A stretch of 64,000 nt of DNA from an uncultured bacterium (GTDB taxonomy: Bacteria > Acidobacteriota > HRBIN11 > JAKEFK01): contig CAVYSN010000001.1 in the NCBI GenBank assembly GCA_963771165.1, positions 62,980 to 126,979 of the forward strand. The letters are read 5' to 3'. The notes below the pieces were generated by a model that worked only from the letters and a program-made list of their open reading frames with translations, was not told the origin of the DNA and did not search any database. Positions 5,009 through 54,310 of the stretch are shown here, piece by piece; position 1 is the first letter of the stretch; every line of letters begins with the position of its first letter. The position numbers and the translations under genes were made by a program.

Positions 5009-6556
5009 TCACACGAGTAGTGGCAGAGCATTTGCCCCGCTGTTGTGTCTGAACGTGCTGGCGTTCAGGGCGTGCCTTGCCCACCGAGGGTGATGTTCTT
5101 TTGCAAATGCTCTGCAAGTTTGATGAAATTTTGCAGAGCATTTCCTCGGAGGAGCATGTTCATACAAAGACAAAATCACCAATTCAAAAGTCTTGTTTTC
5201 GGAATTACACAGGAATTGCTCTGCCACTACAAGCCTTCGAACTCTTACCCGTTGACGTTCTGGATTCTTCTCAACTTTCCGACTGCGTTTGTTGCCGCTC
5301 TCGCAATTTCCACTTCCTTGATCTCTTAAATAAGGCTCAAGATAGGTGATCGCAACCGGCTGATGCATATTACCAAGCAAATCAATTAACTGAATCTTAA
5401 ATTTTTTATCTGCACCTTTTAAGTAAGCTGCAACTCCGGGTACGGCGCGAGGTCCTAATTCTACCAGATAGCTTTCGGCCTGACTTTCGAATTCCGGATC
5501 TTTTAAATTCAGAACAACGGTATCGATGTACGCAGATTCTCCCAAAGCGTACAGGCTAAAGCTGAGCGCTGTCTTAACCGCCGGCTCTTTTCCCGTTGAA
5601 AGTGAAGCTGCAGTCTCTGAACGTGCTGAGTCAGATTCATACGTCCGATTCCTTCAATCGCCGAAATTTGCAAAGCCTTATCTTCGGAATCCAAATACTT
5701 TACCATCCAGGATTCGTATGCTGGATCCGCGATTCTGCTGATTGCGTGAAAAGCAGCACGTCTGTAATCGTCATCATCGGAATATTCAAACAGTTTTTGC
5801 AATTCCGGCAAGGCTTCTCGATAACGAAGCTGTCCCAGAACGCGCGCGGTGTCTGTTACAACATCTTCATTCGAATGCTTTAGCATAGGAACTAAGATAA
5901 GGTCCGGCGGCAGGATCTCCAATGTAGCCAAGCGATCGTACGGTGGTCCGTACCATTTTCGTATTGGGTGACCTCAAGTAGAATGCAAGTCTTGGCAGCG
6001 AGGATCTTGCGCGCAGCAGACCGAGTACGGCAGCCGCTTCGATTCGATTGTCTGATCACTTTCTGATCCAGCACGAAAAGTGATGGAATCCACCGCTTGC
6101 TGATCCACTCTCAACCATGGTTCCACAATCGTGACTTCCGGCGGATCAAAAAGCGCCGAAATCGATGCCATTAACTTTTTTAACTTTCCATGTTCGTGAC
6201 TTGGAATGTAGACCTCGGTTAACAACGACATCGCCTTTTCCTGGGCTTCGCCTTGCGTATTTCGCACGGCCCGGCTGAGATAAGCGACCTGTTGCGGATG
6301 ATGAATTTTACCGAGAGCTTCCACCACGGCCAGCTGAACTTTTGGATCTTTATCGAGCGTTGCTTCGTCTAAAGCTTCGAGTCGCCAGCTTTTCACCGCG
6401 ATCCCCAACTTCTTTTGCAGCTTCGACAGTGCACTTTCGGATCTGTGTTTTTCAGATTCTGAATCAGCTCATCTGTCGAGAGCTTCTCAGCCGCAAAAGA
6501 TGGGAGCGTAAACGCTAAAGACAATAGTACCAGTGTGATCTTATCTAACCTCATCT
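5009..6556 (-). CDS. HEAT/PBS-lyase-like repeat protein with signal peptide, split in several frames; the 3' end reads through repeat R1
   Basis: Pieces 5974..6408, 5509..5931 and 5009..5545 carry HEAT-like repeats (VAYLSRAV, ARVLGQL, LLGNMHQ). The N-terminus MRLDKITLVLLSLAFTLPSFAAEK starts at 6556 in another frame. The C-terminal ~80 codons are translation of the MITE-like element. Confidence 0.55.
5015..5233. repeat. MITE-like element R1 with terminal inverted repeats GAGTAGTGGCAGAGCATTT / AAATTGCTCTGCCACTACAAG and two internal GCAGAGCATTT boxes
   Basis: Box 1 at 5021 (direct), box 2 at 5107 (inverted, AAATGCTCTGC), box 3 at 5137 (direct), box 4 at 5214 (inverted). The same architecture recurs at 51419..51635 and 53919..54310. 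Confidence 0.7.
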
Positions 6557-6603
6557 CATCTTCTCCAGTGTAAAGTTAGATTTATTGTAACATGAACAGA
6601 CAA

Positions 6604-6630
6604 CAAAAAAGGCGGGCAAAAAGCCCGCCT
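6604..6630 (-). terminator. Rho-independent terminator downstream of the pilX-like gene
   Basis: GGCGGGC-AAAAA-GCCCGCC hairpin with an A-run on the plus strand (a T-run on the minus transcript), immediately after the stop at 6653. Confidence 0.7.
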
Positions 6631-6652
6631 TGAAACTACAGTCTTAAGGTAT

Positions 6653-8947
6653 CTATTGCACTCGTTGCGACTCTTCCCAGTCTCGCATGCGTACCGACTC
6701 TGTCGACCAAATGTCGCTAGGGTTCTCACAATCATAGTGGAGGTCGAGGCTACCGAAGACCTCTGTTTCGTCCACATCTCCTGAGCAGGTCGCCCGGTCT
6801 TCCGCAATCACGAACCCATTCACACCGACGGTACCATTAAAGCGGATCGATTCATGTGCCAGATACGCGCCTGCGAAGTTCTGTTGCGTTCCTGTGGGGG
6901 CTCCATTGCAATCCGTGCTATTGCAAGCAAGATCATCTGCGGTTCCGTGCAAGTTTAAGTCGCGTCCCGCTACGACCGCCCACCTATAGTCCGGATCACC
7001 GGCCGGTGGATTGATGTTGACCGTTCCTCCGGCACGAACATTGCCGTAACCGATTACTGTGATTCTCCAGGTTGCGTTCAAGTCAAACAACGGATCGTCG
7101 TCGATATTGATTTGAGCAGCAGGATTCGAAGTTCCTGTATCGTAATAAAAAATTCTGCTCACGTTGCCGCCGAAATCGACATCCGCGTAGGTGAAGATCA
7201 CAGCATTGTAGAGGGGCGAATAGATATCGTTGCCGGTTGCAGTGATATCACCATTGCTTATAATCGTGGACGTATCGAAGTCAGCGCTGTTGTCTCCTGT
7301 GTCAACCGTCTCATACAAGCCTGAGACGGCGTTCAATTCCACTGCTCGGACTCCTGGCAGTGGTTTTGTGAAAAGGCAGGAGCTATAAGTGCCGCACGAG
7401 GTTGAACGCGGTTGGGCTGTACCTGCTCCGCCAACCGATTTTAGTGCATTGCTTCGAGCGTCCACGCCATTGACATGGGGGAAGTCATTCACGTTCCAGT
7501 CATTTTGATCGGAGCCGCTGTTGTCTACTGAGGCAATATAAGGAGTATTCGGGATCGTCTCAAATTCTCCACCTGACGGACAGACTTCGGTGCTCAAGCT
7601 GTTATCCGGATTCCATCCGTAGAAAGTGTTGTTTTGACCGGTGACTCCCTCGGTCGCGGGGGTCCATGAAGAGCCTGAATCTAATGACCACGCATCGGCA
7701 TTGCACAACCCAGGTGTAAGCCCGCAAGTAACCACACGTCCACAATTATCTAACCGTATGGTATCGATATTTGCCTGGTCACTGTTTCCGATTAACCGCC
7801 AGATCCATCTTGAGTCCTTGGGAGGCTCGAGACCGAGCCCTGTATCGCCATAATTGCGATAGGCTTTGTATATGTAAATGGTGTTGTTATCGGCTTTCAC
7901 GATCGCGAAGTACTTTGAACTGCCGGGGTCGAATTCAGTGGGCGCCGGGCAATGTAGGAAATCGGGCAGTGTTCCATCAATCGAAGTATTGAATATTGCC
8001 GGATCGGGTCTGAAAATAGCATTGTAAGGGTTCACAATAGGGATGTAGATTTCCGGCTGTGTTCCCATGTCTCCAAGGATTGCTCCACCGTCGTATAGGA
8101 ATCCTTCTGTTCCCGTCACGGATCCGCAAGCGGATGGCCCCTCCCAGGTCATTGTCCCGTTTGCATGCGCGCTACCGCACTCGCCGCAAAGCTCAAGAGA
8201 TCCATGAACATTCATGTCGGAGTCGCTTCGGATTGCAACCGAGCCGACCGGGGAGAATCGCCCTACCAGATGACGTTCGGACTGGCCGCGGGTGGCAATT
8301 GTCGTATCCTCCGATGCGTCGTCGTCTAAATCCACAAACACAGGATAGATAGTCCGTACTTCGACTCTGACTCGCAGATCCGTATCGTTCGAATCGGCAC
8401 TGACCGGATCATAATTATCGAAAACTCGGGCATAAACGACTGTTCGAATATTGCCGTCATACCGATTGTCATTGTTTTCGTCCACGCCTAACCGGAATAC
8501 TTCCCAGTTTAATCCTGGAAAACTTGCTAACGTATCAATTCCGGATACGGTTTCCTCATTATCATTATCTATCTCTAAACGGTTCATCGTGGGATCGAAA
8601 TTATTCTTAAACCCTAAAATGTTCGCCATCCCGGTGGGCTTCACGGATCCATTCAGAACTCCATCCAGATCAGAAGGTCTGACAGTCACCACATAAGTCC
8701 TGATGGTTCGGTTCGCAAAATCAACCGCCCACTCTGCGTCGGCAAGAGCGTGAAAGGAATCCTGCTCGTTTTGTGAAATCAGGTGTTCCGTATTGCTTTG
8801 CATCACAAGCGAAAGCGAAATCAGCACCAGTGTCAGCATCACCATCATCGTGATGACCAGAGCAACACCTGGCTGCTTTGCTTTTCCGATTGTTTTTGCG
8901 AGGATTCTTGCGTTTCGCAGGATATATTTTTTCATAGATGCTCCCAT
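6653..8947 (-). CDS. Large PilX-N-domain pilus-associated protein (Asp/Asn/Gly/Thr-rich, adhesin-like)
   Basis: N-terminus GVALVITMMVMLTLVLISLSL fits the PilX_N pattern. 764 aa, low-complexity D/N/G/T-rich body. Last gene of the minor-pilin operon. Confidence 0.6.
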   Translation of the reverse strand: MGASMKKYILRNARILAKTIGKAKQPGVALVITMMVMLTLVLISLSLVMQSNTEHLISQNEQDSFHALADAEWAVDFANRTIRTYVVTVRPSDLDGVLNGSVKPTGMANILGFKNNFDPTMNRLEIDNDNEETVSGIDTLASFPGLNWEVFRLGVDENNDNRYDGNIRTVVYARVFDNYDPVSADSNDTDLRVRVEVRTIYPVFVDLDDDASEDTTIATRGQSERHLVGRFSPVGSVAIRSDSDMNVHGSLELCGECGSAHANGTMTWEGPSACGSVTGTEGFLYDGGAILGDMGTQPEIYIPIVNPYNAIFRPDPAIFNTSIDGTLPDFLHCPAPTEFDPGSSKYFAIVKADNNTIYIYKAYRNYGDTGLGLEPPKDSRWIWRLIGNSDQANIDTIRLDNCGRVVTCGLTPGLCNADAWSLDSGSSWTPATEGVTGQNNTFYGWNPDNSLSTEVCPSGGEFETIPNTPYIASVDNSGSDQNDWNVNDFPHVNGVDARSNALKSVGGAGTAQPRSTSCGTYSSCLFTKPLPGVRAVELNAVSGLYETVDTGDNSADFDTSTIISNGDITATGNDIYSPLYNAVIFTYADVDFGGNVSRIFYYDTGTSNPAAQINIDDDPLFDLNATWRITVIGYGNVRAGGTVNINPPAGDPDYRWAVVAGRDLNLHGTADDLACNSTDCNGAPTGTQQNFAGAYLAHESIRFNGTVGVNGFVIAEDRATCSGDVDETEVFGSLDLHYDCENPSDIWSTESVRMRDWEESQRVQ

Positions 8948-8958
8948 TGTTTGACTTT

Positions 8959-9876
8959 CTAGTAGCGATGCTTTCGAACCAGAACTTGTGTCGTAAAGTC
9001 CGCACTCTGATAATCCCCAACTTTATCGGCACGATCTGTGGCTGTAAGATCAATTTGAATAATGTCAACACTGTTGGTGAATACCCCGAGAGGGACAGTT
9101 AACGCAATCGGCCCGGCACTTGTTTTCCTGTAATAGCTCAATCGGAATTCACTGATATTTGTGGCAAACGTCTGCCACGTGGCGGTCAGTGTGGGATCTG
9201 AAACTGGAGGTGTTAGATACCTTTCAGCAGCCCGTTGGATTTCGCATTGAGTGTAGTCCGGCTTAGCAGCTGTAGCTTCGTCGCAGATGGAGTCTCCATT
9301 CGTATCGGGCGTAAGTCTGTACATGACATGAAGAGGGCTGGCAAAAATTTCCGTTTCTGCCACAGCAAAAGCCTGAGCTGCTCCGGGGGTGATGTTTAAA
9401 ACGTCTCCGGTCCGGCTTGAGCAGGTTGTTGATTGCCAGTTTCTTCCGCGTTCTACGATCAAAATAGGAATGCCGTCAAATGGGCAGGCAAATTTCCCTT
9501 CCCCGGTTTCGACTGTGATAGTCGAAGCCCCACTTGCAATCGGTCCGGTAGGCAGGGAGTTGTAGCTATCTACATCCCCACGGAAAACGATCTGATTATC
9601 ATCACCGCTGTAAACAGCAGGATTCCAGGTCAGATTGGCTCCAATCTGACCGCCATTCGGTACCCCAAACCCGATCAGCCTCATTTCGCGTTCCATCGCC
9701 TCCAGAGTGAGCCTTCCATTTTCCTGCAGATTTGCCCTCTTTTCGGAGTGCAGGTACATCCACCTTCCACTGTCAAAAAAGTAATAAATACCAATCGCCA
9801 TGAGCGAGAAAATGGCAACGCTCACGATCATTTCCAGCAAACTAACACCTTTTTCCAAGCGTTTCATAAAGGTCAC
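8959..9876 (-). CDS. pilW: Type IV pilus minor pilin, PilW-like
   Basis: Prepilin-type N-terminus KG/VSLLEMIVSVAIFSL. Operon position between the pilV-like and pilX-like genes. Confidence 0.6.
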   Translation of the reverse strand: MTFMKRLEKGVSLLEMIVSVAIFSLMAIGIYYFFDSGRWMYLHSEKRANLQENGRLTLEAMEREMRLIGFGVPNGGQIGANLTWNPAVYSGDDNQIVFRGDVDSYNSLPTGPIASGASTITVETGEGKFACPFDGIPILIVERGRNWQSTTCSSRTGDVLNITPGAAQAFAVAETEIFASPLHVMYRLTPDTNGDSICDEATAAKPDYTQCEIQRAAERYLTPPVSDPTLTATWQTFATNISEFRLSYYRKTSAGPIALTVPLGVFTNSVDIIQIDLTATDRADKVGDYQSADFTTQVLVRKHRY

Positions 9877-9877
9877 C

Positions 9878-10327
9878 TTACTGAGTGATCAGCGTGGGGA
9901 AAACGATCCTTTTTTGTTCCAGCGCCTCAGAGTCCGACTTCAATGTTCCGGCGGAATCGTAAATGTCATACCCTGCCACCACGATGACTGATTTCGCATT
10001 CGTAAGGGCCGTGTAGTCTTCAACGACCCAGTGCACAGAATACTTATCCGCAGATCCGCCCGGCATCGGCCACTTCGGGAATGATGGAGTGGGATGGGTA
10101 CCCGCAACTAAATCACTGTGAGAAACCGGAATGGACCTGAGATAATCCAACTGCATTTGACCAAGATGGTTTAATGTGGCGCTTCTGCCCGAATTTGTAA
10201 TCTGCTTATATCCACCGGGCAATAGAGCCATAATTCCAAGCGCGACAAGTGAAAGGATTACAATTGCAACAAGAATCTCAATCAATGAAAACCCTTCTTG
10301 AGTTTGTTCCGGATCCTTTAAGTGCAT
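9878..10327 (-). CDS. pilV: Type IV pilus minor pilin, PilV-like
   Basis: N-terminal prepilin motif EG/FSLIEILVAIVILSLVALG. Confidence 0.6.
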   Translation of the reverse strand: MHLKDPEQTQEGFSLIEILVAIVILSLVALGIMALLPGGYKQITNSGRSATLNHLGQMQLDYLRSIPVSHSDLVAGTHPTPSFPKWPMPGGSADKYSVHWVVEDYTALTNAKSVIVVAGYDIYDSAGTLKSDSEALEQKRIVFPTLITQ

Positions 10328-10334
10328 GATTCCT

Positions 10335-10853
10335 CTACTCCTTCACTTTCGTTACCATTCCATTGGTCTGGACAGTGATGCGATAAATGTAATCATCGGT
10401 TGATTTCACCCGAATTGTGCTTCCACCGGTGATGGTGGCGGCGCCTCGGGGATTAAAAGTCACTTCTGTGATTCCTCCGGTCAAAATCTTGAGTCCACTG
10501 GCCACCGATGTGTCCGCATTGGAATATTTTACAAACGTCCCGTCCTTGTCATCATCCATCTGGACTTCGTAGGTGTTGGATGGATCTTCATTGAAAACAA
10601 CCTTGTAATTGATTCGCTTCTTTACGGCTGCCATTCTTGCAAAGCGGATGTTCATTGTGATTTGTTCCACAGCGGTTTGAGAACGGTAATTCTGTATCGT
10701 TTTAAAGAACGCAGGCAGGAATATCGCCGCAACAATTGCAATGAGACCTACCACGATCAGGGCTTCCAGTAAGGTGTACCCGCGATCCAATCCATTATCT
10801 TTTTCGCCCATTGTATTGTGATCCTCAGCAAACACCATACCCGACAAAAACAC
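10335..10853 (-). CDS. Type IV pilin-like pseudopilin, FimT/GspH-like
   Basis: Prepilin motif RG/YTLLEALIVVGLIAIVAAI followed by a GspH/FimT-like beta domain. First gene of the operon. Confidence 0.55.
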   Translation of the reverse strand: MFLSGMVFAEDHNTMGEKDNGLDRGYTLLEALIVVGLIAIVAAIFLPAFFKTIQNYRSQTAVEQITMNIRFARMAAVKKRINYKVVFNEDPSNTYEVQMDDDKDGTFVKYSNADTSVASGLKILTGGITEVTFNPRGAATITGGSTIRVKSTDDYIYRITVQTNGMVTKVKE

Positions 10854-10961
10854 TAGCGTAACTCCTTTAATTTTAATATGTTACCATCATTGCCTTTGAA
10901 TAGGAACGAAGCGCCCTACAAAAAAGTGCTACTTTTTGTAACATCGTAGCCCTAATCAGGA

Positions 10962-12603
10962 GGGGCGTATTCTCCGCAGTTCAATGAGAGTTTTTTCTTT
11001 GTCTCCGGAGTCAAGAGCGCGCTGAACGAGCAGAAACCTGGGATCCCAGGTCGACGCCTCAGATAGAATTGTGAGGGCTTCGACGGTTCTACCAAGATGC
11101 AAAAAGGCTTCGCACATCATAAGGATAAGCTCCACCGATTCCCGTCTGTTCGGGTAAACCTGAACAAAATAGGACAGCGCTTCTTCATATTTTTGTTTGC
11201 GATAGCGAATGATACCCAGTCCGGTTTTGCGTCAATAAAATTCGGATCGATTTGAAGAGTCGTCCGAAAGCTTTGCTCCGCTGCTTCGGATTGACCCATT
11301 TCCAGCAACGTAAATCCAAGTCCTGAATGGACGTACGGATTGTGTGGATTTAGGCCGCGCGCTTTCAAATATTCCTCCAGCGCAGCATCATACTGCTTGA
11401 GTTGAAACAGCACGAAAGCAAGATTGATGTGAGGCCGGTATTTTTGAGGAGATTTTTCAACGGTGTCAGCCCAGAGCGTTATCCGCTTCTGCCAGACAAG
11501 ATTTCTTTTCCAGGTGGCGGCGACGTAGAAAGATCAACAAACAGGATAAGGCGAATGGTATTAATCGAGTACCCGACCTTGCAAGAGTGACGGTGTAAGC
11601 CACACAGGCACAGAATCCGAACATGCTGAGATACGTCCGATGTTCCGCCATGAAATCGTTGAGCGGCAGAAGCGAAGAAGGTGCCAGATTTAAAAAGAAC
11701 CATGCTCCCCAGAAAAAGAGCCACGGGTGAATTTTTCTGGACCTCCACAACACAAACATCATAAAGGCAACGACGAGAAGGGAGACGAGAAATTTCCAGT
11801 GCGTCGGATGAAGTGGTTCGACAAAGTGATCCACATTCAGGGGAACCGGAAAAATGGCGAGTCCCAGATATCGCAACCAGACATACATCTCGGTGGAGAG
11901 ATACACTGAGAACGAATAAGGCATTCGGGCTTCAATAAAAGAGAGACGAAAAAGAGCCCCGCATGCGATCAGCAAAAATGTAACAATATGAAAAATGCGA
12001 TGCTTCTTGACAGACTCCCTTCCGAAAAAAGCGTAGTTATAAAGAAGAGCTGCGGCCGGAATCAAAGCGGATTCCTCTTTGCAAAGCAAGCCCAGCAGCA
12101 GAAACAAAACGAACGCTACCGGTTTGAACCAGGCCGGTTTGCGAAGATGAGCATCGAAAGACAATAATGCTGCCCAGTAGAAAAAGTGCGCAGAGCAAGA
12201 TCGGACGGCTTGCTGTGTAAGAAACGGATTCGGTATTCAGAGGATGCACGGCAAACAGGGCAGCCGAAAAAAAGCAAAGGAGCGCGCTCCCGGCGGATCG
12301 TCGCATGAAAACGTAAAAAAGACCTGTCGACAGCAGGTGCAAAACGAAGTCAAAAACGTGATAAGAAAAAGGATCCTTCTGACCGATGCGATAGTTCACA
12401 GCGTAGGTAAAAAGAGTCAATGGCCGAAAGGGTTCAAATCGTGCGATGTTTTGCCAAACCGATAAATCTCTTAAGGCAAAATTGAATCGGATCAGGCGTT
12501 CATCATCGTACTGAAACTCTCCATGAAAAGCGTTCGAGTAAGCGATCCATGCAATCACGCTGATCAGAAGCAGAGCCAGAAGGTCTCTTCGCCTGCCGTT
12601 CAT
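10962..12603 (-). CDS. TMTC-like membrane protein (DUF1736-type polytopic N-terminus plus C-terminal TPR repeats), split in 3 frames
   Basis: Pieces 12037..12603 (MNGRRRDLLALLLISVIAWIAYSNAFHGEFQYDD..., typical TMTC/DUF1736 N-term), 11466..12164 (TM helices) and 10962..11413 (TPR: AALEEYLKARGLNPHNPYVHSGLG). True ATG at 12603. Confidence 0.6.
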
Positions 12604-12630
12604 GGAGAGCACTATACTACGCTTTGTAAC

Positions 12631-12740
12631 GTCCGCGAGACTGTCCCAAAAATGAGTTGGAGCGCGGACTTCCAGTCCGCAAAAACAGGTAATTTCGACG
12701 AGTCTTTGCCGGCAAGGTTGTGCCCGCGCTCCCACTAGAT
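12631..12740. repeat. ~105-nt structured intergenic repeat, copy A (second copy at 21713..21818)
   Basis: Near-identical core AGTTGGAGCGCGGACTTCCAGTCCGCAAAAAC ... GACGAGTCT ... GCGCTCCCACTA. It contains the hairpin GCGGAC-TTCCA-GTCCGC and a long-range stem GGAGCGCGG/CCGCGCTCC. Sits in the divergent region between the TMTC-like gene and suhB. Confidence 0.7.
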
Positions 12741-12779
12741 GTTCGACAGGCTCCACTACTATCAAGGTACAATATCGGC

Positions 12780-13574
12780 ATGAAGCTCGAGACTTTCTTG
12801 CGCCAACTGTTGTTGCAAGCAGGTGACCGCCTGCGGAAACAATTTGGACGCGTAAAGAGTGTTCACTATAAAGCGGGTTCAGTAACAAATCTCGTAACAA
12901 ATGTTGACCGGGATGTCGAAAAATTCATTAAATCCCAGATTCGAAAGAGATACCCGAATGACAGCATACTGGCGGAAGAAAGTGAGCTGGAGAAGGCGCA
13001 TTCTCCGCAAAGATGGATCATCGATCCGCTGGATGGAACGACGAATTTTGCTCACGGTTTGTCTTTGTTTTGTATTTCGATCGGCGTCGAAATGGAAGGG
13101 GATTTAATTGCGGGCGGAGTATACGATCCGATGCACGACGAGCTGTTTTTTGCGAGCAAAGGAAAGGGAGCGACTCTCAACGGAAAAAAGATCCGGGTGT
13201 CACGGATAGAAAAGCTGGAGCAAAGTCTGCTCGTTACAGGTTTTCCTTATGACATCCATGAGAACCCCGAAAAATCTTTACCCTATTTCAACGCTGTGAT
13301 TCAGCGCGCCCAGGGTTTAAGGCGGCTTGGATCCGCCGCTCTGGATATTTGTTATCTTGCAATGTCGCGCTTCGATGGATTCTTTGAAGTGTTTCTGAAT
13401 CCATGGGACACAGCCGCAGGATGTCTGATCTTGCGCGAAGCGGGTGGAGTCATTACTGATTTTTCAGGAAAACCATTTTCCATTTATCAGCGTGAGCTGG
13501 CTGCGAGTAACGGTTTGATCCATGATGAAATGATTCAGGTTTTGAAAAAGGTGAAAAATGAAAAGGTCCGGTAG
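12780..13574 (+). CDS. suhB: Inositol monophosphatase family protein (SuhB-like)
   Basis: IMPase motifs (ILAEESE, WIIDPLDGTTNF, DPWDTAAG). The track start 12720 reads through repeat A, so ATG 12780 (MKLETF) is preferred. Confidence 0.8.
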   Translation: MKLETFLRQLLLQAGDRLRKQFGRVKSVHYKAGSVTNLVTNVDRDVEKFIKSQIRKRYPNDSILAEESELEKAHSPQRWIIDPLDGTTNFAHGLSLFCISIGVEMEGDLIAGGVYDPMHDELFFASKGKGATLNGKKIRVSRIEKLEQSLLVTGFPYDIHENPEKSLPYFNAVIQRAQGLRRLGSAALDICYLAMSRFDGFFEVFLNPWDTAAGCLILREAGGVITDFSGKPFSIYQRELAASNGLIHDEMIQVLKKVKNEKVR

Positions 13575-14986: not shown

Positions 14987-14988
14987 TT

Positions 14989-15237
14989 ATGGAAGAAGCA
15001 CCCATCATCAAACTTAATTTTGGAAGATATCTAAAACCATCCGTTGCGCCCTGCTCATTTTGCGGTGTAGACATTCCAGGCAAGGCTGGATTTCTGTTAA
15101 AGATTGAGAATCTGACAGGGAATACGCTCAATGAAATCCATCTTTGCACCAAGTGTATGGAACACAGCCGCCAGTATGAGGCAGAAATTGATCTGTCGAC
15201 AAGCAACCCGCAACATTCGCTCAAACTCGGATTTTAA
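14989..15237 (+). CDS. Small zinc-ribbon-like protein (CSFCG ... CTKC)
   Basis: 82-aa ORF starting 3 nt after the IPT gene stop, with two CxxC pairs. Confidence 0.4.
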   Translation: MEEAPIIKLNFGRYLKPSVAPCSFCGVDIPGKAGFLLKIENLTGNTLNEIHLCTKCMEHSRQYEAEIDLSTSNPQHSLKLGF

Positions 15238-15244
15238 CTCAGAG

Positions 15245-15296
15245 ACGCAAAGACGCGGAGACGATCAAAAGACTTTGCGTCTCCGCGTCTTTGCGT
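15245..15296. terminator. Bidirectional hairpin (19-bp perfect stem) between convergent genes; member of a GACGCA-heptad hairpin family
   Basis: ACGCAAAGACGCGGAGACG ... CGTCTCCGCGTCTTTGCGT. The arms are built from AGACGC(A) heptads. Lies between the zinc-ribbon ORF (+) and tyrA (-). Confidence 0.6.
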
Positions 15297-15355
15297 TAAT
15301 TCTTATCCATTCATCCAGCAGATTGCGCATGTGTTTTGCGGTGCGAAGCATATTT

Positions 15356-42463: not shown

Positions 42464-42505
42464 CTTAGCTTCTGCTGTCTTGCGGCCTTACCGTTTTACG
42501 AGTCT

Positions 42506-43681: not shown

Positions 43682-43711
43682 GGCGGGTCTCAGACCGGCG
43701 TCTACAAAAAA

Positions 43712-45909: not shown

Positions 45910-46663
45910 AATCAGCGTCCCGATCCTTACGTATCATTCACTGGATTCCAGCGGCTCTGTGATCTCGACATCTCCGGAAAAATTTCGGGAACAAATGAAA
46001 GGCTTATCTCAGTCGAATACGCAGGTTATAACGCTTCGTGAGATCGCCTCCTGTTTGCGCGAACGGCGCAATTTGCCGTCTGATAGTGTTGCTTTGACCT
46101 TCGATGATGGTTTCCAGAGCGTCTATGACGTCGCGCTTCCGGTTCTGCAAGAATATGGTTTCCCGGCAACCGTATTTTTAGTTACGGATTTCTGCGGCAA
46201 AAATAACCAATGGTATGGCCAATCCGGCCGCATTCCGACATTCGATCTTCTTTCGTGGGATCAAATTCTAGAAATGGCGAAACGGAACGTGGAATTTGGC
46301 GTGCATTCAGCAACCCATCCCGACCTCACAAGAATCCCGAAGGGAAAAATCGCAGATGAAATTCTGGGTGCGCGCGACAAGATTCGCGAGAGATTGGGGC
46401 ACAGCGAAACAGCTTTTGCGTATCCGTACGGAAAATATTCGGATGAAGCCGGGAGGATTATTGAGTCCAACTTCTACGCCGCCTGCTCTACGGAAATGGA
46501 TTTTGCTTCCGCAGAGTCCAACTTACACTTCCTGCCGCGCATTGATATGTATTACTTTTCAAGCAATAACTTCCTTTCTACGATCGGTACGGCGTCTTTC
46601 AGAAGATTTGTTCATCTTCGCAAAATTCTGCGCGGGCTGAAGCGAATGATGATGGGCGACTGA
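45896..46663 (+). CDS. Polysaccharide deacetylase (CE4 family)
   Basis: VALTFDDGFQSVYDVALPVLQEYGFPATVFLV. Confidence 0.75.
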   Translation: MTPNEISVPILTYHSLDSSGSVISTSPEKFREQMKGLSQSNTQVITLREIASCLRERRNLPSDSVALTFDDGFQSVYDVALPVLQEYGFPATVFLVTDFCGKNNQWYGQSGRIPTFDLLSWDQILEMAKRNVEFGVHSATHPDLTRIPKGKIADEILGARDKIRERLGHSETAFAYPYGKYSDEAGRIIESNFYAACSTEMDFASAESNLHFLPRIDMYYFSSNNFLSTIGTASFRRFVHLRKILRGLKRMMMGD

Positions 46664-47230
46664 TTGATGCTCTTAAGGGTGCTGCTCTTCTCAGGTTTGG
46701 TGTTTCATAAGCTGGTATGGGAAATCTGGAAAAGGAAATATCCATCCGGTGCAAAATTCAAACCTTCCACTCTAGTCAAAAGAATCGTGAAACTTTGTAA
46801 AGTTGCTTTTCTGGTGTTCCTGCTGGTTCAGTCGCTCTTTCTGGATATTTTTCCGATCCACAATGCTCCGCCTTATTTGCGTTACCTTGGGGTTACGCTT
46901 TTTATCCTCGGTTTATGCATTTCCATCAGTGGACGAATTCGCCTCGGACAAAACTGGGCGGATCTGGAAGACCAGCGGGTCCTGCCGAAACAAGAGCTCG
47001 TTACTGTCGGCATTTATCATTACATCCGACATCCCATTTATCTGGGTGATGTTTTTTTGGTGACAGGATTCGAACTCGCGTTAAACTCCTGGCTCTTTTT
47101 GCTGGGATTCATGATCGCTATGGTTGTCATCCGCCAGGCGATCCTGGAAGAGAAGTTGTTGAAGAACGCATTTCCAGAATACGGCGAGTACTGCATGCGT
47201 ACGAAACGATTCCTTCCATTTATTGTTTAA
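46664..47230 (+). CDS. Isoprenylcysteine carboxyl methyltransferase-family membrane methyltransferase
   Basis: 4-5 TM helices plus RHPIYLG motif. Confidence 0.6.
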   Translation: MMLLRVLLFSGLVFHKLVWEIWKRKYPSGAKFKPSTLVKRIVKLCKVAFLVFLLVQSLFLDIFPIHNAPPYLRYLGVTLFILGLCISISGRIRLGQNWADLEDQRVLPKQELVTVGIYHYIRHPIYLGDVFLVTGFELALNSWLFLLGFMIAMVVIRQAILEEKLLKNAFPEYGEYCMRTKRFLPFIV

Positions 47231-47276
47231 CATAATTGTAGTGGCGGGTCTCAGACCCGCCATACGAATTTCTTAA

Positions 47277-48698
47277 ATGAATCGACCACACGTTGTGATC
47301 CTGGGTGCCGGGCCTGCGGGACTCGGCGCTGCATTTCACCTTGCAAGGCGCAAGTTTGCGGATGTTACGGTTCTGGAACAGAACGCCCATCCGGGTGGAA
47401 ATGCCGGCAGTTTTGAGATCGAAGGAATACGTGTTGATTTCGGAAGCCACCGCCTCCATCCCGCCTGTGATCCTGATGTCATGAATGACATTCGAAATTT
47501 GCTCGGTGATGATTTGCTCCTGCGGCCCCGCCACGGAAGAATTCGCATGCAAGGACGGTGGATTCATTTTCCCTTGCGTATGTTGGATCTGGCTCTTCGT
47601 CTTCCTCCCGGTTTTGTGATCGGGGTCTTTGGAGACCGGATTCGAAAGGTCTTCAACCGGAGCAACCCGAAGGTCCAATCCTTCGCCAGCGTATTAGAAT
47701 CCGGTCTGGGACGCACCATCTGCAGAGATTTCTATTTTCCGTACGCGCTGAAAATCTGGGGCGTCCCGCCTGAAGAACTTGCTGCTATTCAAGCGCACAG
47801 GCGGGTCTCTTCAGGTTCCCTGACGAAAATGTTTCGCAAGGTTCTTTCTGTTTTGCCGGGCCTCCGACCGCCAGGACATGGTTACTTTTTCTATCCCCGT
47901 CTGGGCTATGGCCAGATCTCTGAAGCATTTGAAGCCGCTGCTGTAAAAGAGGGAGCGCAGGTCCATTTTCGAGCTCGAGTCGAATCGGTGGAGCTTTCAA
48001 ATGGCAAAGTGACGGGGGTGCGTTTTCAGAAAGATGGATCTTTGCATGAATTGGAAGCGGGCCACGTATTTTCAACAATTCCGGTCAACGCGCTTGCGCG
48101 ATGTGTTTCGCCGCCTGCGCCGGCAGCAGTGTTGGATGCAGCCGCGCGTATACGTTTTCGCGGGATGATTCTTGTGTATTTATTGTTGGAACAGGATCAC
48201 TTTAGCGAATTTGACGCGCATTACTTTCCTGAACCGGATGTTGCCGTATCTAGAATCTCTGAGCCCAAAATCTTTTCCAACGGAGCCGGCACTCCGGGTG
48301 TCACTGTTCTTTGCGCCGAGCTTCCATGCGAAGTAAATGGTCCCTTCTGGACGAAGTCAGACGGAGAACTGAGCCAGCTGGTTTTGGATTCCTTAAGGAA
48401 TGCTGATATTCCGATCGACACAACGATCCTCAAAGTTCTGACTCGCCGCTTGCCGAATGCTTACCCAATCTACTATCAGGGCTATGAAGATTTCTTTCAA
48501 ACGGTGGATCGCTGGGCCAGTCAAATCGATGGGTTGCTGAATTTCGGCCGCCAGGGGCTTTTTGCTCATGACAATACACACCACGCACTGTTCATGGGCT
48601 ACGCTGCTTCGAAATGTCTGGGTGAAGATGGTCAATTGAACCTCACACGATGGGAAGAGTATCGCAAAATATTCGAAACTCACGTCGTTGAGGATTAA
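47277..48698 (+). CDS. FAD-dependent oxidoreductase, paralog of the 40173..42007 enzyme
   Basis: VVILGAGPAGLGAAFHL. Shares the GSHRLHP, YFFYP and AYPIYYQGY motifs with the other copy. Confidence 0.65.
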   Translation: MNRPHVVILGAGPAGLGAAFHLARRKFADVTVLEQNAHPGGNAGSFEIEGIRVDFGSHRLHPACDPDVMNDIRNLLGDDLLLRPRHGRIRMQGRWIHFPLRMLDLALRLPPGFVIGVFGDRIRKVFNRSNPKVQSFASVLESGLGRTICRDFYFPYALKIWGVPPEELAAIQAHRRVSSGSLTKMFRKVLSVLPGLRPPGHGYFFYPRLGYGQISEAFEAAAVKEGAQVHFRARVESVELSNGKVTGVRFQKDGSLHELEAGHVFSTIPVNALARCVSPPAPAAVLDAAARIRFRGMILVYLLLEQDHFSEFDAHYFPEPDVAVSRISEPKIFSNGAGTPGVTVLCAELPCEVNGPFWTKSDGELSQLVLDSLRNADIPIDTTILKVLTRRLPNAYPIYYQGYEDFFQTVDRWASQIDGLLNFGRQGLFAHDNTHHALFMGYAASKCLGEDGQLNLTRWEEYRKIFETHVVED

Positions 48699-48714
48699 TG
48701 TATATGAGCAAGAA

Positions 48715-50253
48715 TTACCTTCGACGCCAGATCACATAAAGAATGAAGGCGGCCAGCGCAAACAATGGCAGAGGGGAAGGTCCGTAAGGGAAATATTCCT
48801 TCATGGACTCCATTCGACTGAGAGTCGTAAGCACCGGCAACTGAAATCCTCCTGAAAAAACGCGGATCACCGGCTCCAGAATTCCTGAACCGCGTTCCAC
48901 ATCCCTGTACATCGCCATGCACCAGGCGAGCGTGTACGACATTAGAATCAGGCTTTGCCGGATGAAAGGAGTCAGCGCCATCAACACAACCGATACTGGA
49001 ACAAACAACAACGGAATCAGAACAACCAGATATCGAATACCCGTATTGAATTGAAAATTCGTGTAATTAACTCCGCCAAAAAAGAGCCAGAGGGCAACAC
49101 AGACCAAGAACAGGAAGCGGAGCTCCAAGCGAGGCAGTTTTGGGTCACGGATCCAGAATGAAAAGAAAGCGAGTAGCAAAAGAGGGCAGCTCAGGAACAA
49201 TCCGTAGCGATAGTCTGACAGAAGAGACCACATCAGATCGGTTCTCGGGAAAACGAAACCGCGGAATCCGGTCTCTACCCATTGATTGATCGCAGGCATG
49301 TGATACTGGGGCGGATGAAAGGGATCGCCAAAACTTTTCCATTGATAAAACCAGAGCAATGCCAGCGGAATGAGGGCGCCGGCTGCAAATCGCACGGAGT
49401 GCGCAGCCCGATTTTCACGGTACTTGATCAGACCGTAAAGCCATAGCAATGCAAGCGGAATTACGCCACTGTAATCCAGAAGAACGCAGAATCCGCCGGC
49501 CAGACCTGCCAGCATGAAACGCGCACCTATGTTTGATGACGGCAGGCGAACGCCGCTATTCCACAACAAAACAAAACCGGCAAACAGAATGTGCGCTGTC
49601 ATCAAGTTCTGATTGAGGTATCCCGTGCGATAAAAAATTGGCGTGCCGAAGCCGTAAAGAATCGATAACCAGAGTGCGGTCCGGTTCGATCCAAAGATCC
49701 TTCGCAACACAAAAAACATCAGTACCACACCGGCGGCGGAGAATGGAGCCATGCAAAAGATTTGCATGACAAGCGCGGCCAACCCCAGTTTCACATCCAA
49801 TCCCCGGCGCCAGGCTTCCTCATAAAAATCGCGTGCAAGCGGCCATGGGGAATCATATTTAGGAGGATTCACCGTGCCGGATCGGTTGCGCGTTTCCATC
49901 ACGTGATTCACAACCCTGTCAATCCATGATCGATTCAATAGATAAGGAACGGATCCAATCATGGAAGCGCCGGGATTATTGTTGATGTGCCACCCATGGC
50001 CGGGTTTTTCAAACAGATCCGGGTGGAGCCCGGCATATTCATCGATGCGGAAGGTGTAATGGTCGCCGATCGAAACGGCAAGGTAAATTTCACGCACGAT
50101 GTTGGTGGAGAAATGCAAAGCATACAGAAACCAGCAACTCAGAAATAAACGGACTGCAGTTCCACGGGTCGTGTAGCGCCATGCTTCGGGCTCGATTGGC
50201 ATGATGCTAGTGTAGCCCCGGAGGGCCGCCGGCAAAAGTAGGCCGCGGCTCAT
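48715..50253 (-). CDS. Polytopic membrane protein, putative GT-C-type glycosyltransferase
   Basis: More than 10 predicted TM helices; sits in the glycan locus. An internal start MPIEPEAW is possible. Confidence 0.4.
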   Translation of the reverse strand: MSRGLLLPAALRGYTSIMPIEPEAWRYTTRGTAVRLFLSCWFLYALHFSTNIVREIYLAVSIGDHYTFRIDEYAGLHPDLFEKPGHGWHINNNPGASMIGSVPYLLNRSWIDRVVNHVMETRNRSGTVNPPKYDSPWPLARDFYEEAWRRGLDVKLGLAALVMQIFCMAPFSAAGVVLMFFVLRRIFGSNRTALWLSILYGFGTPIFYRTGYLNQNLMTAHILFAGFVLLWNSGVRLPSSNIGARFMLAGLAGGFCVLLDYSGVIPLALLWLYGLIKYRENRAAHSVRFAAGALIPLALLWFYQWKSFGDPFHPPQYHMPAINQWVETGFRGFVFPRTDLMWSLLSDYRYGLFLSCPLLLLAFFSFWIRDPKLPRLELRFLFLVCVALWLFFGGVNYTNFQFNTGIRYLVVLIPLLFVPVSVVLMALTPFIRQSLILMSYTLAWCMAMYRDVERGSGILEPVIRVFSGGFQLPVLTTLSRMESMKEYFPYGPSPLPLFALAAFILYVIWRRR

Positions 50254-50270
50254 CGCGCCAGAGTCCTCTC

Positions 50271-50639
50271 TTGACTTTTATTTTAGTATTTACTAAAATA
50301 TTGACTATGGAAGTTTTTCAAGCCTTACAGACGCCGCGCAGGCGTGAGATTTTGAGACTGGTTTGGGATGAAGAGCTGTCGGCAGGCGAAATTTGCCGAC
50401 GTCAGAGAGATGTCACATTTGGCGCTGTTTCGCAGCATCTTCGCATACTGGAAGAAGCGGGCCTGGTCGGAAAACGGGAAGATGGAACTTACAGATACTA
50501 CATCGCAAAGAAGGAGACCTTAGGAGCGCTGCGAAAGTATCTGGAAGAGATGTGGGATGCATCTTTGTACCGGTTAAAGATCCGAGCCGAGATCGAAGAC
50601 GCGCGGAGAGGGCCACGATCAAAAAAGAGGAGAAAATGA
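50271..50639 (+). CDS. ArsR/SmtB-family transcriptional regulator
   Basis: wHTH LSAGEICRRQRDVTFGAVSQHLRILEEAGLV. Confidence 0.8.
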   Translation: MTFILVFTKILTMEVFQALQTPRRREILRLVWDEELSAGEICRRQRDVTFGAVSQHLRILEEAGLVGKREDGTYRYYIAKKETLGALRKYLEEMWDASLYRLKIRAEIEDARRGPRSKKRRK

Positions 50640-50640
50640 T

Positions 50641-51408
50641 ATGTCCAGGGAGCTGATTCATTCATTGGAAAGAACGATCGTCATTTGCGCAAAAAAATCG
50701 ACGGTCTTCCGTTTTTTTACGGATTCAAAGCGTTTTGCAGATTGGTGGGGCGAAGGTTCCACGATAGAAGGTCACGTGGGTGGGTCGTTACTTATTCGCT
50801 ATCCGAACGGAATTCTGGCCTCCGGTAAAGTTCTTGAAATGGAACCAGATAAACGAATCGTTTTTAGTTACGGCTATAACTCGGGCAAGCCGTTTCCTGC
50901 CGGCGAATCGCGAGTCACCATTACGGTGCAAAAGCACCCAGATGGTACTGAGTTATCGCTTCGACATGATTTGCCGGATTCTGCCGTACTAGATGAACAC
51001 ATCCAGGGTTGGCGCTATCAATTGGCCCTCTTTGCTAATGTTGCGTCGCGTTATCAGCATTTTGACGTGTCAGCAAAGGTCGATGCCTATTTTGATCTGT
51101 GGAACACGACGGATGCTGAGGCGCGTTTAACAAAGATGAACGGGCTGCTGGAACCTGAGATCACTTTCCATGACAAATTTAGCTGTACTCTGGGATGGGA
51201 GGATCTAAATGCGCATCTTTCGGCCTATCAATACTTCATGCCCGGAATGAGCCTTGCAAGGGAAGCTGAAGCGGAACAGTGTCAGGGTACCGTCCTGTCC
51301 AGATGGGTCGCAAACAAAAAGGATGGAACTCAAGCCGGGAAAGGATGGAACGTGTTTACGTTTTCTCCAGAAGGACGCATCCGTCACATCACCGGATTCT
51401 GGGAATAG
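50641..51408 (+). CDS. SRPBCC (AHSA1-like) tandem-domain protein
   Basis: Typical ArsR partner. Two Bet v1-like halves. Confidence 0.65.
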   Translation: MSRELIHSLERTIVICAKKSTVFRFFTDSKRFADWWGEGSTIEGHVGGSLLIRYPNGILASGKVLEMEPDKRIVFSYGYNSGKPFPAGESRVTITVQKHPDGTELSLRHDLPDSAVLDEHIQGWRYQLALFANVASRYQHFDVSAKVDAYFDLWNTTDAEARLTKMNGLLEPEITFHDKFSCTLGWEDLNAHLSAYQYFMPGMSLAREAEAEQCQGTVLSRWVANKKDGTQAGKGWNVFTFSPEGRIRHITGFWE

Positions 51409-51418
51409 TCCGGAAAAT

Positions 51419-51635
51419 TGCAGTGGCGAGAGCATTTTGCCGTCTAATTGAAAATGGCTGGCATCTTTCAGATGGATAACCATTTGTTATTATGAGCCTT
51501 TCCTGTAAGGCAAATGCTCTGTTTCCTGCCTCTCAGCAGAGCCTTTCCAAATGCAAAGAAATCCGGCGACAGTTGATAGGCTGTTGACGGAAAAGTTCAT
51601 ATTAAGGGGAGCGGGAAATGTTCTGCCACTGCAGC
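51419..51635. repeat. MITE-like element R3 (GCAGAGCATTT-box family)
   Basis: Left end TGCAGTGGCGAGAGCATTTTGCC, right end GAAATGTTCTGCCACTGCAG. Internal boxes GCAAATGCTCTG (inverted) and CAGCAGAGCCTTTCC (direct). Packed between two convergent genes. Confidence 0.7.
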
Positions 51636-51640
51636 CTGCA

Positions 51641-52827
51641 TTAGGAAGTAGGTTTTTCTTTGAGTTGTTTTTCGATCAGGCCTTTGTCGATCTCGCTTTT
51701 CTCATCCGGGGCTTCCACTTTCACAGTCGGAGCCTCTTCCTTCTTTAAGACCTTTTCCATAACCGGCCTGGCCTTCTCATCTTGTATCTTCTCAGCCACA
51801 ATCTCAGGGAATTTATCCGGCGCGATCCATCCCTGTTCCACGGCGTGTTTTGCCGCTGCGAGCGTATCATCGGTCAGGATCAGCGTGCTGCCTGCTTCAA
51901 TCACTTTCTTGGCAAGTTCCCGAATGGCTGCAGGCCGTTTTAAGTCACGGCTGACGTTTCTGATGTAGATCGCCAGGATTCGTTTGGGATACATAGAAAG
52001 GATTTCATGATAGATTTCAGGATCCTTTTGTCCGCTATCTCCTATCAGGATAAATGGGAGATGGCTTACGACGTCCATGATGTGGCGGATCGTTTCCAGT
52101 TTGTGGTCGCGGTGGTTGTGCGGCAATGTATCCCGCGAGCCTCCCCAATCCCGCAGGAGCAGCGGTCCAATCGGAATATTCTGCAGATAGAAAAACTCCA
52201 TCAGCAGGTCATACAAATTCCAGGGACTGCTCGATACATAATAGAGCGGGTTCGTGGGCTTTCCATTCTCCTCATGCAAAGCCTGATAAAACGCGGCGAC
52301 TCCTTTGAAGGGCATTCGCGTTCTTGCATTTCCCAAAACTATGTTTTTGAACATTCGAATCACATTCGTAGCATCCGTTTGAAGAACGGTGTCATCCATA
52401 TCACTGATGACACCAAACCTTGCATCTTCCGATGGGATCATCACGTAACCCGTTTCTTGAATCTTTCCTTGACCCGGATGCATTGGCTCCAGGAGTTCAA
52501 CGTCCACCTGGTGCCAGAGTTTGTCCTGAACAAGGGGAACGGACGGTTGCAGGGAGAAACTGAAGTAGCCTTCCGAATCGGTTATGGCTTCCTGGGTGAA
52601 GCCGTTTATGGAAGCTCGTGTCCGGGCGCCGGGGATCTCATCGCTTTCGAAACGTTTCCACGCGTTTCTAAAATTCCGCCATGCTGAGTCTGTCACCGCT
52701 GACAGGCCAACATCTTTGCTTTCCAGTACCCGGCCACGGAGATAGACGATTCGTGGATTTCCATACCCGCGATACGGAACAATTTGAATCGGACTTTTCG
52801 CGCGAAGTTTTCGGGCCCAATTGCGCG
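51641..52827 (-). CDS. App1-family (DUF2183) phosphatase; probable frameshift near the 5' end
   Basis: DDTVLQTDA ... YVSSSPWNLYDLL ... LLRDWG. The conserved N-terminus IVPYRGYGNPRIVYLRGRVLE is in frame upstream of the track start 52696, but the ATG at 52827 is in another frame. Confidence 0.6.
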
Positions 52828-52874
52828 CTTTGTTTATAGGGAGTCATGATTTTACCGTTCTACATATATTATCT

Positions 52875-53925
52875 ATGGATATGGAGCTTCCTGTTCAACC
52901 GCCCGTCCCGCCGATGCTGGCTGTCCTTTCGCGCGAGTTGCCTGAAGGCAAAGGATGGTTGTTCGAGCCGAAGTGGGATGGTTTTCGAGCGCTCGTTTTC
53001 CGGGATGGTAACGATTTAATGATCCAGAGTCGCGATTTGAAACCGCTGGACCGCTATTTTCCGGAGCTCCAGGAAGACTTGCGGAAAGTCCTTCCCCGGA
53101 AAGTTGTTCTGGATGGAGAAATTGTTATCGCCGGCCCGAACGGTCTGGATTTTGACTCATTACTGATGCGGATTCATCCCGCTGCTTCACGCATCGCGAA
53201 ACTGGCAAAGGAAACGCCCGCTTCCTTCGTTGCGTTTGATATTCTGGCGCATTCCAGCACGAATTTGATGAATGTTTCGTTGGAACAACGAAGAAAAACG
53301 CTGGAGAAAATCGGCGCAAGTCTTCCACCGCCTTTCTATTTAACTCCGGCTACAACCAGCATTGAAAACAGCAAAGGATTGGTTTATCCGCTTCGAAGGG
53401 GCCGGTTTGGATGGAGTGATCGCGAAAGAATTAGATCAGGTTTATGTGCCCGGTGAGCGGGTCATGCTCAAGGTGAAACACCAGCGCACGATCGATTGTG
53501 TTGTCGGAGGATTTCGCTGGTTCAAGGATCTGAAAGGACAGGCGATCGGTTCATTGTTGCTCGGTTTATATAAAGACAAAACTCTGCATTACGTAGGGCA
53601 TGCATCGAATTTTCAGAAAGAGGAGCGCCGCAAACTTGTAGAGTTTTTGAAACCCTACCGCGATTCTTCGGGAAAGGAAGGATTTGGAGCCGGCCGAACG
53701 CCGGGTGGAATCAGCAGATGGACAAAGAACGCCGATGTGACCTGGGAACGATTACGTCCGGAACTTGTTTGTGAGGTTGCATTTGATCATTTGCAAGGTG
53801 AACGGTTTCGTCATGCTGCATCGTTTCTTCGATGGCGACCGGATAAACCACCCATCGAATGCACCTTTGATCAGATCGACACAGCGGTCCCCTTTGAGCT
53901 GAAGCAGATCTTTGACATCGAGTAG
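52875..53925 (+). CDS. ATP-dependent DNA ligase (ligase domain only, LigC-like), frameshifted
   Basis: Motif I KWDGFR in EPKWDGFRALVF. Pieces 52821..53456 and 53362..53925 are collinear (adenylation plus OB domains). Confidence 0.75.
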
Positions 53926-54310
53926 TGGAGCCTGTCGAAAAATTCGACGAACTGTGGCAGAGCATTACAACGACTGTGCACGGGCAGCATGGACTCTACG
54001 ATGCTTAACAGTAATCAGAATTCTTGTTGTGTTGGAAATGCTCTGCATCATCCCCGAAGAAGCAGAGCATTTTCTAAAGTAAGAATGCCTATACTCAATG
54101 CTAGAGTCATACCTTCGAAAGAAAGTCCCTGGTCACGGAATGCTCGCCAGCACGGTGGAAGCAACACCTGAATGGACAAGTGTGGATTTTCTGGGAGGAA
54201 TTGCTCGGCAGAGCATTTGCTCAACTGCTGAAAGCATAGGCTAAGAACAATTCATCAGAGCGGAACTAAAGCTTAGCAAGAGTACCCGTCAAATGCTCCG
54301 CCACTACGAG
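53919..54310. repeat. MITE-like element R2, composite (about 1.5 units) of the GCAGAGCATTT-box family
   Basis: Left end CGAGTAGTGG overlaps the ligase stop codon. Boxes at 53966 (direct), 54033 (inverted), 54063 (direct), 54207 (direct, fused to an AGGAATTGCTC right-end fragment) and 54291 (inverted, AAATGCTCCGCCACTACGAG). Confidence 0.7.

Follow-up and report, generated by a model that had tools for sequence, protein, structure and literature searches.

GTAG-headed hairpin units in an uncultured acidobacterium are probably REP/REPIN-type repeats of a RAYT transposase clade

We analyzed a 64,000-nucleotide (nt) stretch of DNA from an uncultured member of the Acidobacteriota (contig CAVYSN010000001.1, positions 62,980 to 126,979; hereafter the window), in which three intergenic sites carry inverted copies of one short box, GCAGAGCATTT. 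The three sites are probably repeats of the repetitive extragenic palindromic (REP) type or of the REPIN type, whose cognate enzymes are a clade of REP-associated tyrosine transposases (RAYTs; Y1 enzymes of the HUH type). The family appears to be new, but it belongs to a kind of bacterial repeat that is already known and is not a new kind of mobile element. This reading draws on the anatomy of the units, the covariation of their stems, their physical linkage to a transposase gene and the variation of the box together with the transposase. The 5' GTAG tag, the alternating orientation and the flanking of RAYT genes place the repeats in the class of REPs and bacterial interspersed mosaic elements (BIMEs).

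The 5' GTAG is required by RAYTs, which bind and cleave single-stranded REP hairpins but not their complement (PMC8266576). In REPINs, conserved stretches of inverted orientation stand a constant distance apart and pair over a spacer of lower conservation (PMC3116915). Two further reports describe REPs as carrying a 5' GTAG, folding into a hairpin, occurring often as dimers of opposite orientation and flanking RAYT genes (PMC3733652, PMC2817692). An initial annotation of the window, made from its letters, had proposed three copies of an undescribed element of about 220 bp resembling a miniature transposable element with inverted repeats (MITE) and, as an alternative, an array of sites for a dimeric regulator.

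Results

Three intergenic sites are built from one kind of hairpin unit

With at most one mismatch allowed, the box had 13 matches in the 64 kb, compared with 1.8 ± 1.3 expected from shuffled sequence, and none of 100 shuffles reached this count. Twelve of the 13 matches fell within three sites, each running from a head to a tail: 5017 to 5230, 51420 to 51632 (with the variant head GCAG) and 53922 to 54307. A 17-mer that includes the head (GTAGKGGCAGAGCATTT, at most three mismatches) had five matches against 0.19 expected, all of them inside the three sites. When two mismatches to the box were allowed, the additional matches in the whole window were near chance; therefore, the window contains no further copies. 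In total, seven units and one arm remnant with alternating orientations were found (Table 1). The repeated boxes reported by the initial annotation are thus real, and their order (direct, inverted, direct, inverted) was borne out. The repeating entity is, however, a unit of about 92 nt and not an element of about 220 bp, although the usual site does consist of a pair of such hairpin units. Likewise, the architecture said to be shared by the copies is shared by the arms and not by the internal sequence, the loops being no more alike than shuffled sequence.

Each unit (88 to 97 nt in the window) consists of a left arm GCAGAGCATTTNC, an interior of about 66 nt and a right arm GNAAATGCTCTGC, the arms forming a 13-bp stem. 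Units are usually paired tail to tail, with GTAGTG before the left (a) unit and CACTAC after the right (b) unit. The inner arms are without these six head or tail bases, and the linker between paired units ranges from -2 to 35 nt. In a logo of the ends, G-T-A-G-(T/G)-G is followed by GCAGAGCATTT-N-C, and the profile is flat beyond on both sides. The GTAG tetranucleotide 5' of the hairpin is thus conserved. For the a-unit of site 1, the predicted minimum free energy was -44.5 kcal/mol, with a z score of -3.5.

All three sites are intergenic and lie at gene ends or between genes. Site 1 is located between a gene for a HEAT-repeat protein and the start of UbiD, and the final HEAT reading frame reads through the element, in agreement with the earlier description of this copy as the read-through tail of the HEAT gene. 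Site 2, described as packed between two convergent stops, indeed fills the gap between the stops at 51408 and 51641. Site 3 lies between the gene for an ATP-dependent ligase and that for a large Ser/Thr kinase; the kinase starts at 54356, with the end of the site 49 nt upstream. The overlap with the ligase stop codon was also found as reported: the codon is the TAG of the GTAG head at 53922-53925. Among 79 heads, the TAG of GTAG served as the stop codon of a long upstream open reading frame (ORF) in 16, compared with about 6 for each of the other two frames. Heads of this kind include the one of site 3, those at 9885 and 10513 of locus L116 and that at 733-736 of locus L072 (loci outside the window are given by our L numbers). 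Elements were frequently seen to abut the very end of a gene.

The stem covaries within each unit

Covariation was analyzed in 71 units from the window, from genomes and from soil metagenomes, after removal of duplicates and of the Terriglobia type described below. Pairs were counted in 69 ungapped arm pairs, five of which came from RAYT-flanking units (L117, L120). The 13-bp helix was 97% paired, and six of its pairs were changed on both sides. The next three positions were 34% paired, which is the chance level (38 to 46% in slid controls), and slid and shuffled controls scored lower than the 13-bp helix. The arms of a unit are thus complementary over exactly 13 positions, with agreement at chance beyond. 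Pair 12 was UA in 32, GC in 23, CG in 10 and AU in one of the 69 arm pairs, and only two were unpaired. In the 71-unit set, the counts were GC 67 and AT 3 at stem position 4; TA 61, CG 4 and GC 2 at position 11; TA 35, GC 21, CG 9 and AT 1 at position 12; and CG 44 and TA 6 at position 13.

In 18 double elements, position 12 agreed within the unit in 33 of 36 cases and between the a and b units in only 2 to 3 of 18. Therefore, every unit forms a hairpin by itself, and common ancestry of the whole element does not account for the agreement. About 6 of 18 agreements between a and b units would be expected from the base frequencies; the shortfall is not statistically secure, but it may reflect avoidance of mispairing between neighboring hairpins.

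These data bear directly on the view that the boxes are double-stranded sites, about 80 bp apart, for a dimeric regulator or a nucleoid protein. Such sites would fit a highly conserved box of 11 to 13 nt that occurs in inverted pairs at narrow spacing (unit length 89 to 96). However, at a stem position where T, G and C are all tolerated, the partner arm carried the matching base in 66 of 71 units and the neighboring unit of the element did not, whereas a reading as duplex half-sites needs no match. Since a duplex-binding regulator does not require the two arms to correspond, the compensatory changes remove this alternative of the initial annotation, and the location of the sites, which are not at promoters, also speaks against it. 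We regard regulator sites as extremely improbable.

Other explanations of the arms and ends were rejected. The sigma-54 -24/-12 promoter consensus is TGGCAC-N5-TTGC. At 5019-5036 of the window and in other units of the GCC subfamily, TGGCAGAGCATTTGC fits the -24/-12 pattern, while the TTTTCC and TTTTTG subfamilies do not; TGGCAG-N5-TTGC thus fits one subfamily only, and such a promoter would point into the element. A Xer/dif-like core was rejected on the spacing of the inner arms, which ranges from -2 to 35 nt. Integron attC sites have R''/R' core sites (RYYYAAC / GTTRRRY) and extrahelical bases, and they separate gene cassettes next to intI. The arms GCAGAGCATTT/AAATGCTCTGC, in contrast, are fully paired, and the units are adjacent without cassettes between them.

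RAYT genes are flanked by the units

Six-frame ORFs of the collected sequence were searched with E. coli RayT, which led to a protein of locus L072, and its homologues were added with their surroundings. A Y1/HUH gene flanked by units was found in ten loci outside the window (L072, L116-L118 and L119-L124), and in L097 a Y1_Tnp gene was only partly flanked. Locus L072 encodes a 171-amino acid (aa) Y1_Tnp protein (Pfam, 5.3e-9) between a double element and another arm, and the stop codon of this gene is supplied by the CTAC tail of the element; the L116-L118 homologues were 58% identical. In L122 and L121 a RAYT gene stands where the linker would be, with GTAGTG and the a unit on one side and the b unit and CACTAC on the other. 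This layout explains why heads are present on the outer ends only and why the linker is variable. Compared with these two loci, the double element looks like a derivative that has lost the transposase gene of such an element.

The best NCBIfam match of all five proteins scanned (those of L072 and L019, and P0125, P0131 and P0129) was REP_Tyr_transpos. In an alignment of seven RAYT proteins with E. coli RayT, the HUH motif, the catalytic Tyr and the NP motif were invariant, at an overall identity of 21 to 25% to the E. coli protein. Further, the box varies with the RAYT lineage: it is GCTGAGC with GTAGGG in L119, GCGAAGC in L124 and GCCGCGC in L123. The changes between lineages are always compensated on the other arm.

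The type of transposase also bears on the view of the sites as classical MITEs, that is, deletion derivatives of a DDE insertion sequence moved by cut-and-paste via terminal inverted repeats. The terminal inverted repeats of 17 to 19 nt would suit such elements, and the TA inside the GTAG and CTAC ends might pass for a duplicated TA. However, conservation extends to the G that precedes this TA and to the C that follows it, so GTAG is part of the element. Direct repeats outside GTAG/CTAC, including the target-site duplications that the initial annotation had proposed to look for, were not seen beside the listed units. In addition, the internal sequence is not common to the copies, and the only transposase found adjoining units is of the Y1/HUH type. 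The elements are dispersed, non-autonomous, hairpin-forming and intergenic, and to this extent the term MITE-like was apt; with no target-site duplications, no common interior and a Y1/HUH instead of a DDE enzyme, we give a classical MITE next to no probability.

A further possibility is that the units are kept purely as RNA elements, namely, as gene-end hairpins that stabilize, terminate or mark mRNAs, with no present role for the transposase. The position of all three sites at gene ends or between genes, the covarying stem and the 16 of 79 heads that abut a gene and give its stop codon are in line with this. Moreover, the arms are exact inverted repeats, so that the stem reads alike from a transcript of either strand, and such roles are reported for REPs (PMC3733652). 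Pairing alone, however, leaves unexplained why the sequence of the stem and an unpaired GTAG are conserved between lineages whose TrpC proteins are 64% identical, and why the box changes in step with the RAYT lineage. There is also no U-tract after the stem, and a terminator scan found nothing at the arms. A purely RNA-based role is therefore unlikely as the full explanation; as a secondary effect, it is compatible with repeats that belong to a RAYT.

Related copies occur in other genomes and in metagenomes

Scans with an arm-gap-arm pattern yielded 53 loci in species-representative genomes and 55 loci in metagenomes. The genome total was near the chance expectation, yet the same GTAG-headed family was present in L011, L015, L051 and L024, and also, with the head GTAGGG, in L018 and L052. 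The metagenome matches were almost all real, as their unit lengths clustered at 89 to 96 although 73 to 103 were admitted. The closest other relatives of the TrpC encoded in the window were 64 to 66% identical. One of these genomes, GCA_975752425.1 (TrpC 64% identical), contains a dispersed double element at a different intergenic site (L109) and also a RAYT gene with flanking units (L117). In a more distant relative (L112), the HEAT-UbiD gene order is kept, but the spacer that corresponds to site 1 of the window is empty and measures 118 bp. Identity among the orthologous loci L116, L117 and L118 was 99.8%. A 10-bp tandem duplication (CTACAAGTAT) whose start lies in the CTAC tail of the element, at 10722-10741 of L117, is the sole length difference from L116 over 20 kb. 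Local tandem repetition of a unit along with its flanking sequence was seen at 1286-1792 of L060, 2711-3124 of L065 and 10750-11120 of L119, with periods of 161, 323 and about 195 bp.

The scans also returned a second repeat, TAATGCAGAGCATTTTTAGCTCGGCGGCGCGGC...GCCGCGCCGGTGAGCTAAAAATGCTCTGCATTA, from Terriglobia/Acidobacteriota, with the same core box and an overall length of 86 to 94 nt. It has a long conserved GC-rich stem, no GTAG head and no Rfam match, and it was found in about 20 loci (L002, L005, L006, L008, L019-L021, L025, L030, L035, L044 and L046-L049). This hairpin family could not be tied to a RAYT: the sole adjacent RAYT gene (L019, 1380-2203) is bracketed on both sides by a different palindrome, CCCACCCTTCG-N8-CGAAGGGTGGG. 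A candidate autonomous element in L078 was rejected as well, its box pair 1.6 kb apart being chance one-mismatch matches inside glycosyltransferase genes.

In Rfam 15, the match that the initial annotation had suggested seeking was absent from the window at the gathering scores of the families, and the sole match in 16 related loci was a tRNA; with E values up to 10, matches were at chance level only. A full-text literature search with the box sequence returned primers only. The family thus appears undescribed, on a comparison that, for the 24 families of PMC3733652, covered their description in the text of that report. Of the novelty claimed for the element, the family-level part appears to hold, whereas the link to REPs and BIMEs, which the initial annotation itself had named as grounds for calling the element known, makes its kind a known one.

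The loops are uniform in length and free in sequence

The loops measured 66.0 ± 1.8 nt, in scans that admitted gaps of 52 to 82 nt only and thus left other loop sizes outside the sample, and they had no position-specific composition. Their folding was no better than that of shuffles (mean z -0.06) or of neighboring DNA, and comparison with all other sequence examined, including nearby DNA, gave no match. Units beside RAYT genes had loops of 4 nt in L121 (upstream unit), about 33 nt in L124 and about 41 nt in L097. The narrow loop length within a subfamily may be a matter of inheritance with few indels.

Loops that are unique in sequence yet uniform in length, with no excess folding, could be taken to carry information, as captured or targeting sequences that a conserved stem presents and a ruler of about 66 nt measures off. 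The uniformity is, however, limited by the gap range of the scans, and the loops next to RAYT genes deviate from it. Furthermore, the loops match nothing else in the sequence examined, and paralogous units keep their loop, as expected of ordinary copying followed by drift. We consider informational loops very unlikely.

A related proposal, for which the likelihood is low but clearly higher, is that this RAYT clade uses a hairpin with a length-constrained (about 66 nt), sequence-free loop and represents a distinct architectural class of REPs. New units would then arise with new loops, or single-stranded loops would mutate much faster than their surroundings. If true, units with the same core box and loops of 4, about 33 and about 66 nt would offer a natural test of what the RAYT reads, to which the long GC-rich stem of equal overall length in Terriglobia would add.

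Observations that weigh against a RAYT-linked repeat

Several findings count against the assignment of the sites to a RAYT. The window units are about 98 nt long with 66-nt loops, while described REPs have 20 to 40 nt and loops of a few nt. No RAYT-like ORF was found in the 64-kb window, even by a profile search of ORF fragments of at least 40 aa, so the RAYT link for the source genome rests on relatives. Four close homologues scored 69 to 78 bits on the RAYT model NF047646, just under its cut-off of 80; on the IS200 model, with a cut-off of 55, the same four scored 25 to 28 bits. The covariation does not separate folding of RNA from folding of single-stranded DNA. Finally, the loops of the seven window units could not be aligned, their similarity being no higher than that of shuffled sequence. 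REPIN populations, in contrast, are near-identical, and the unlike loops thus give no sign of recent replication in the source genome. Among 2485 unit pairs, only 4 had loop sequence in common, and 3 of these were from the same locus or were local tandem copies. The fourth pair, in contrast, favors the assignment: L066, a single unit bearing both head and tail, was 79% identical to the a-unit of L071 over the whole unit, with unrelated flanks. Therefore, units have been copied to new places, loops included.

Because their loops have fully diverged, the window copies look old and immobile, and the decayed arms in sites 2 and 3 likewise suggest old age.

Details of the three sites

The coordinates of the features are listed in Table 1.

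Table 1. Hairpin units and associated features of the three sites, in window positions
Feature	Position	Strand	Description
Site 1, complete double element	5017-5230		GTAGTG head, a-unit, 17-nt linker, b-unit, CACTAC tail; neighbors: HEAT gene (upstream, - strand), UbiD start at 5000
Site 1, a-unit	5023-5115		Arms 5023-5035 (GCAGAGCATTTGC) and 5103-5115 (GCAAATGCTCTGC); 67-nt unique loop
Site 1, b-unit	5133-5224		Arms 5133-5145 (GCAGAGCATTTCC) and 5212-5224 (GGAATTGCTCTGC); 66-nt unique loop
Site 2, double element	51420-51632		Variant head GCAGTG, tail CACTGC; a-unit 51426-51522, linker 51523-51535, b-unit 51536-51626
Site 3, displaced head GTAGTGG	53922-53928	+	The ligase ORF (53362-53925) stops at its TAG, 53923-53925
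Site 3, first double element	53954-54155		a-unit 53957-54046, linker 54047-54061, b-unit 54062-54149
Site 3, inner-right-arm remnant	54196-54209		AGGAATTGCTCGGC; abuts the next unit, remainder of its a-unit missing
Site 3, last b-unit and tail	54208-54307		b-unit 54208-54301, tail CACTAC 54302-54307

In site 3, about 29 nt (53929-53953) separate the GTAGTGG head from the arm, and a repeated GTGG borders this insert, which contains a small hairpin (gtcgaaaaattcgac). In the b-unit of the first double element in this site, decay has affected both the right arm and the tail (AATGCTCGCCAGCAC). The fused junction AGGAATTGCTC/GGCAGAGCATTT, which the initial annotation had placed in the second site as one element inserted into another, lies in the third (54196-54218).

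The left arm of the site 2 a-unit has a 1-nt insertion (GCgAGAGCATTT). Genes adjoining the elements are split across frames: UbiD into three ORFs, the HEAT-repeat gene into four and the ligase gene into two overlapping ones (window 3557-5000, 5009-6554 and 52821-53925). This points either to assembly indel errors or to pseudogenes, and assembly indel errors could also be the source of the insertion in the site 2 arm.

Discussion

By homology with the RAYTs that have been studied, binding of the folded single strand, cleavage and mobilization would be the expected activities in this system. In the mechanism that we propose, a unit would act as a hairpin in single-stranded nucleic acid, with a GTAG(T/G)G tag, a conserved 13-bp stem and a loop that is free to vary. 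The usual element is two such units tail to tail with their heads outward (GTAGTG-a-linker-b-CACTAC), which is the layout of a RAYT gene and the unit on either side of it once the gene is taken out. The RAYT, presumably encoded once elsewhere in the genome, may bind the folded hairpin together with the GTAG tag, cleave nearby and occasionally excise or copy units without target duplications. Transcribed hairpins at gene ends would probably also affect the 3' ends of mRNAs.

Among known systems, the E. coli REPs and BIMEs with their transposase RayT (TnpA-REP; the REPtron) resemble the window family in the 5' GTAG, in a hairpin whose stem is conserved, in the way that neighboring units alternate in orientation and in lying between genes, at their ends, and likewise in a Y1/HUH gene that is flanked by repeats and in the lack of target duplications. 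The E. coli REPs, however, have 29 to 37 nt, their stem is bulged and their loop spans only a few nt, whereas the window family has a perfect 13-bp stem, a loop of about 66 nt that is not shared between units and two further bases between GTAG and the stem. Described REPs are about one-third the size of its unit. The family resembles the REPINs of Pseudomonas fluorescens SBW25 (Bertels and Rainey 2011, PMC3116915) in that two conserved sequences of inverted orientation, set a constant distance apart, form a hairpin over a spacer of lower conservation, and also in having a cognate RAYT and clusters of higher order. In contrast to those near-identical populations, in which each REP is palindromic, its arms are not palindromic, its loops have diverged to saturation, and the GTAG tag is present only on the outer side of a unit pair. 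The GTAG REP superfamily with its TIRtrons (TIRYT), described by Di Nocera et al. 2013 (PMC3733652), also shows GTAG, dimers of opposite orientation and transposase genes flanked by repeats, but its size class of 20 to 40 bp is smaller than the window units. That report also mentions tyrosine transposases with flanking inverted repeats in Acidobacteria.

Elements of the IS200/IS605 group and their transposase-less derivatives share the Y1/HUH type, the single-stranded DNA hairpins and the lack of target duplications. They differ in having unlike left and right hairpins on one strand and several gene copies, whereas the window family has symmetrical ends, and its transposases score far lower on the IS200 model than on the RAYT model (25-28 versus 69-78 bits). 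Correia, ERIC and RUP-type MITEs are likewise small intergenic inverted-repeat elements that are co-transcribed with neighboring genes, but their interior is conserved and, in Correia elements, a TA is duplicated; the window family shows neither feature.

For the annotation of this genome, the assignment to a RAYT-linked repeat accounts for three odd intergenic sites, a stop codon supplied by a repeat and the read-through tail of the HEAT gene. It would widen the REP/REPIN-RAYT system, which would then include an uncultured soil lineage and a hairpin far larger than those studied previously. The box, which changes in step with the transposase lineage and is always compensated on the other arm, is ready material for studies of DNA recognition by RAYTs.

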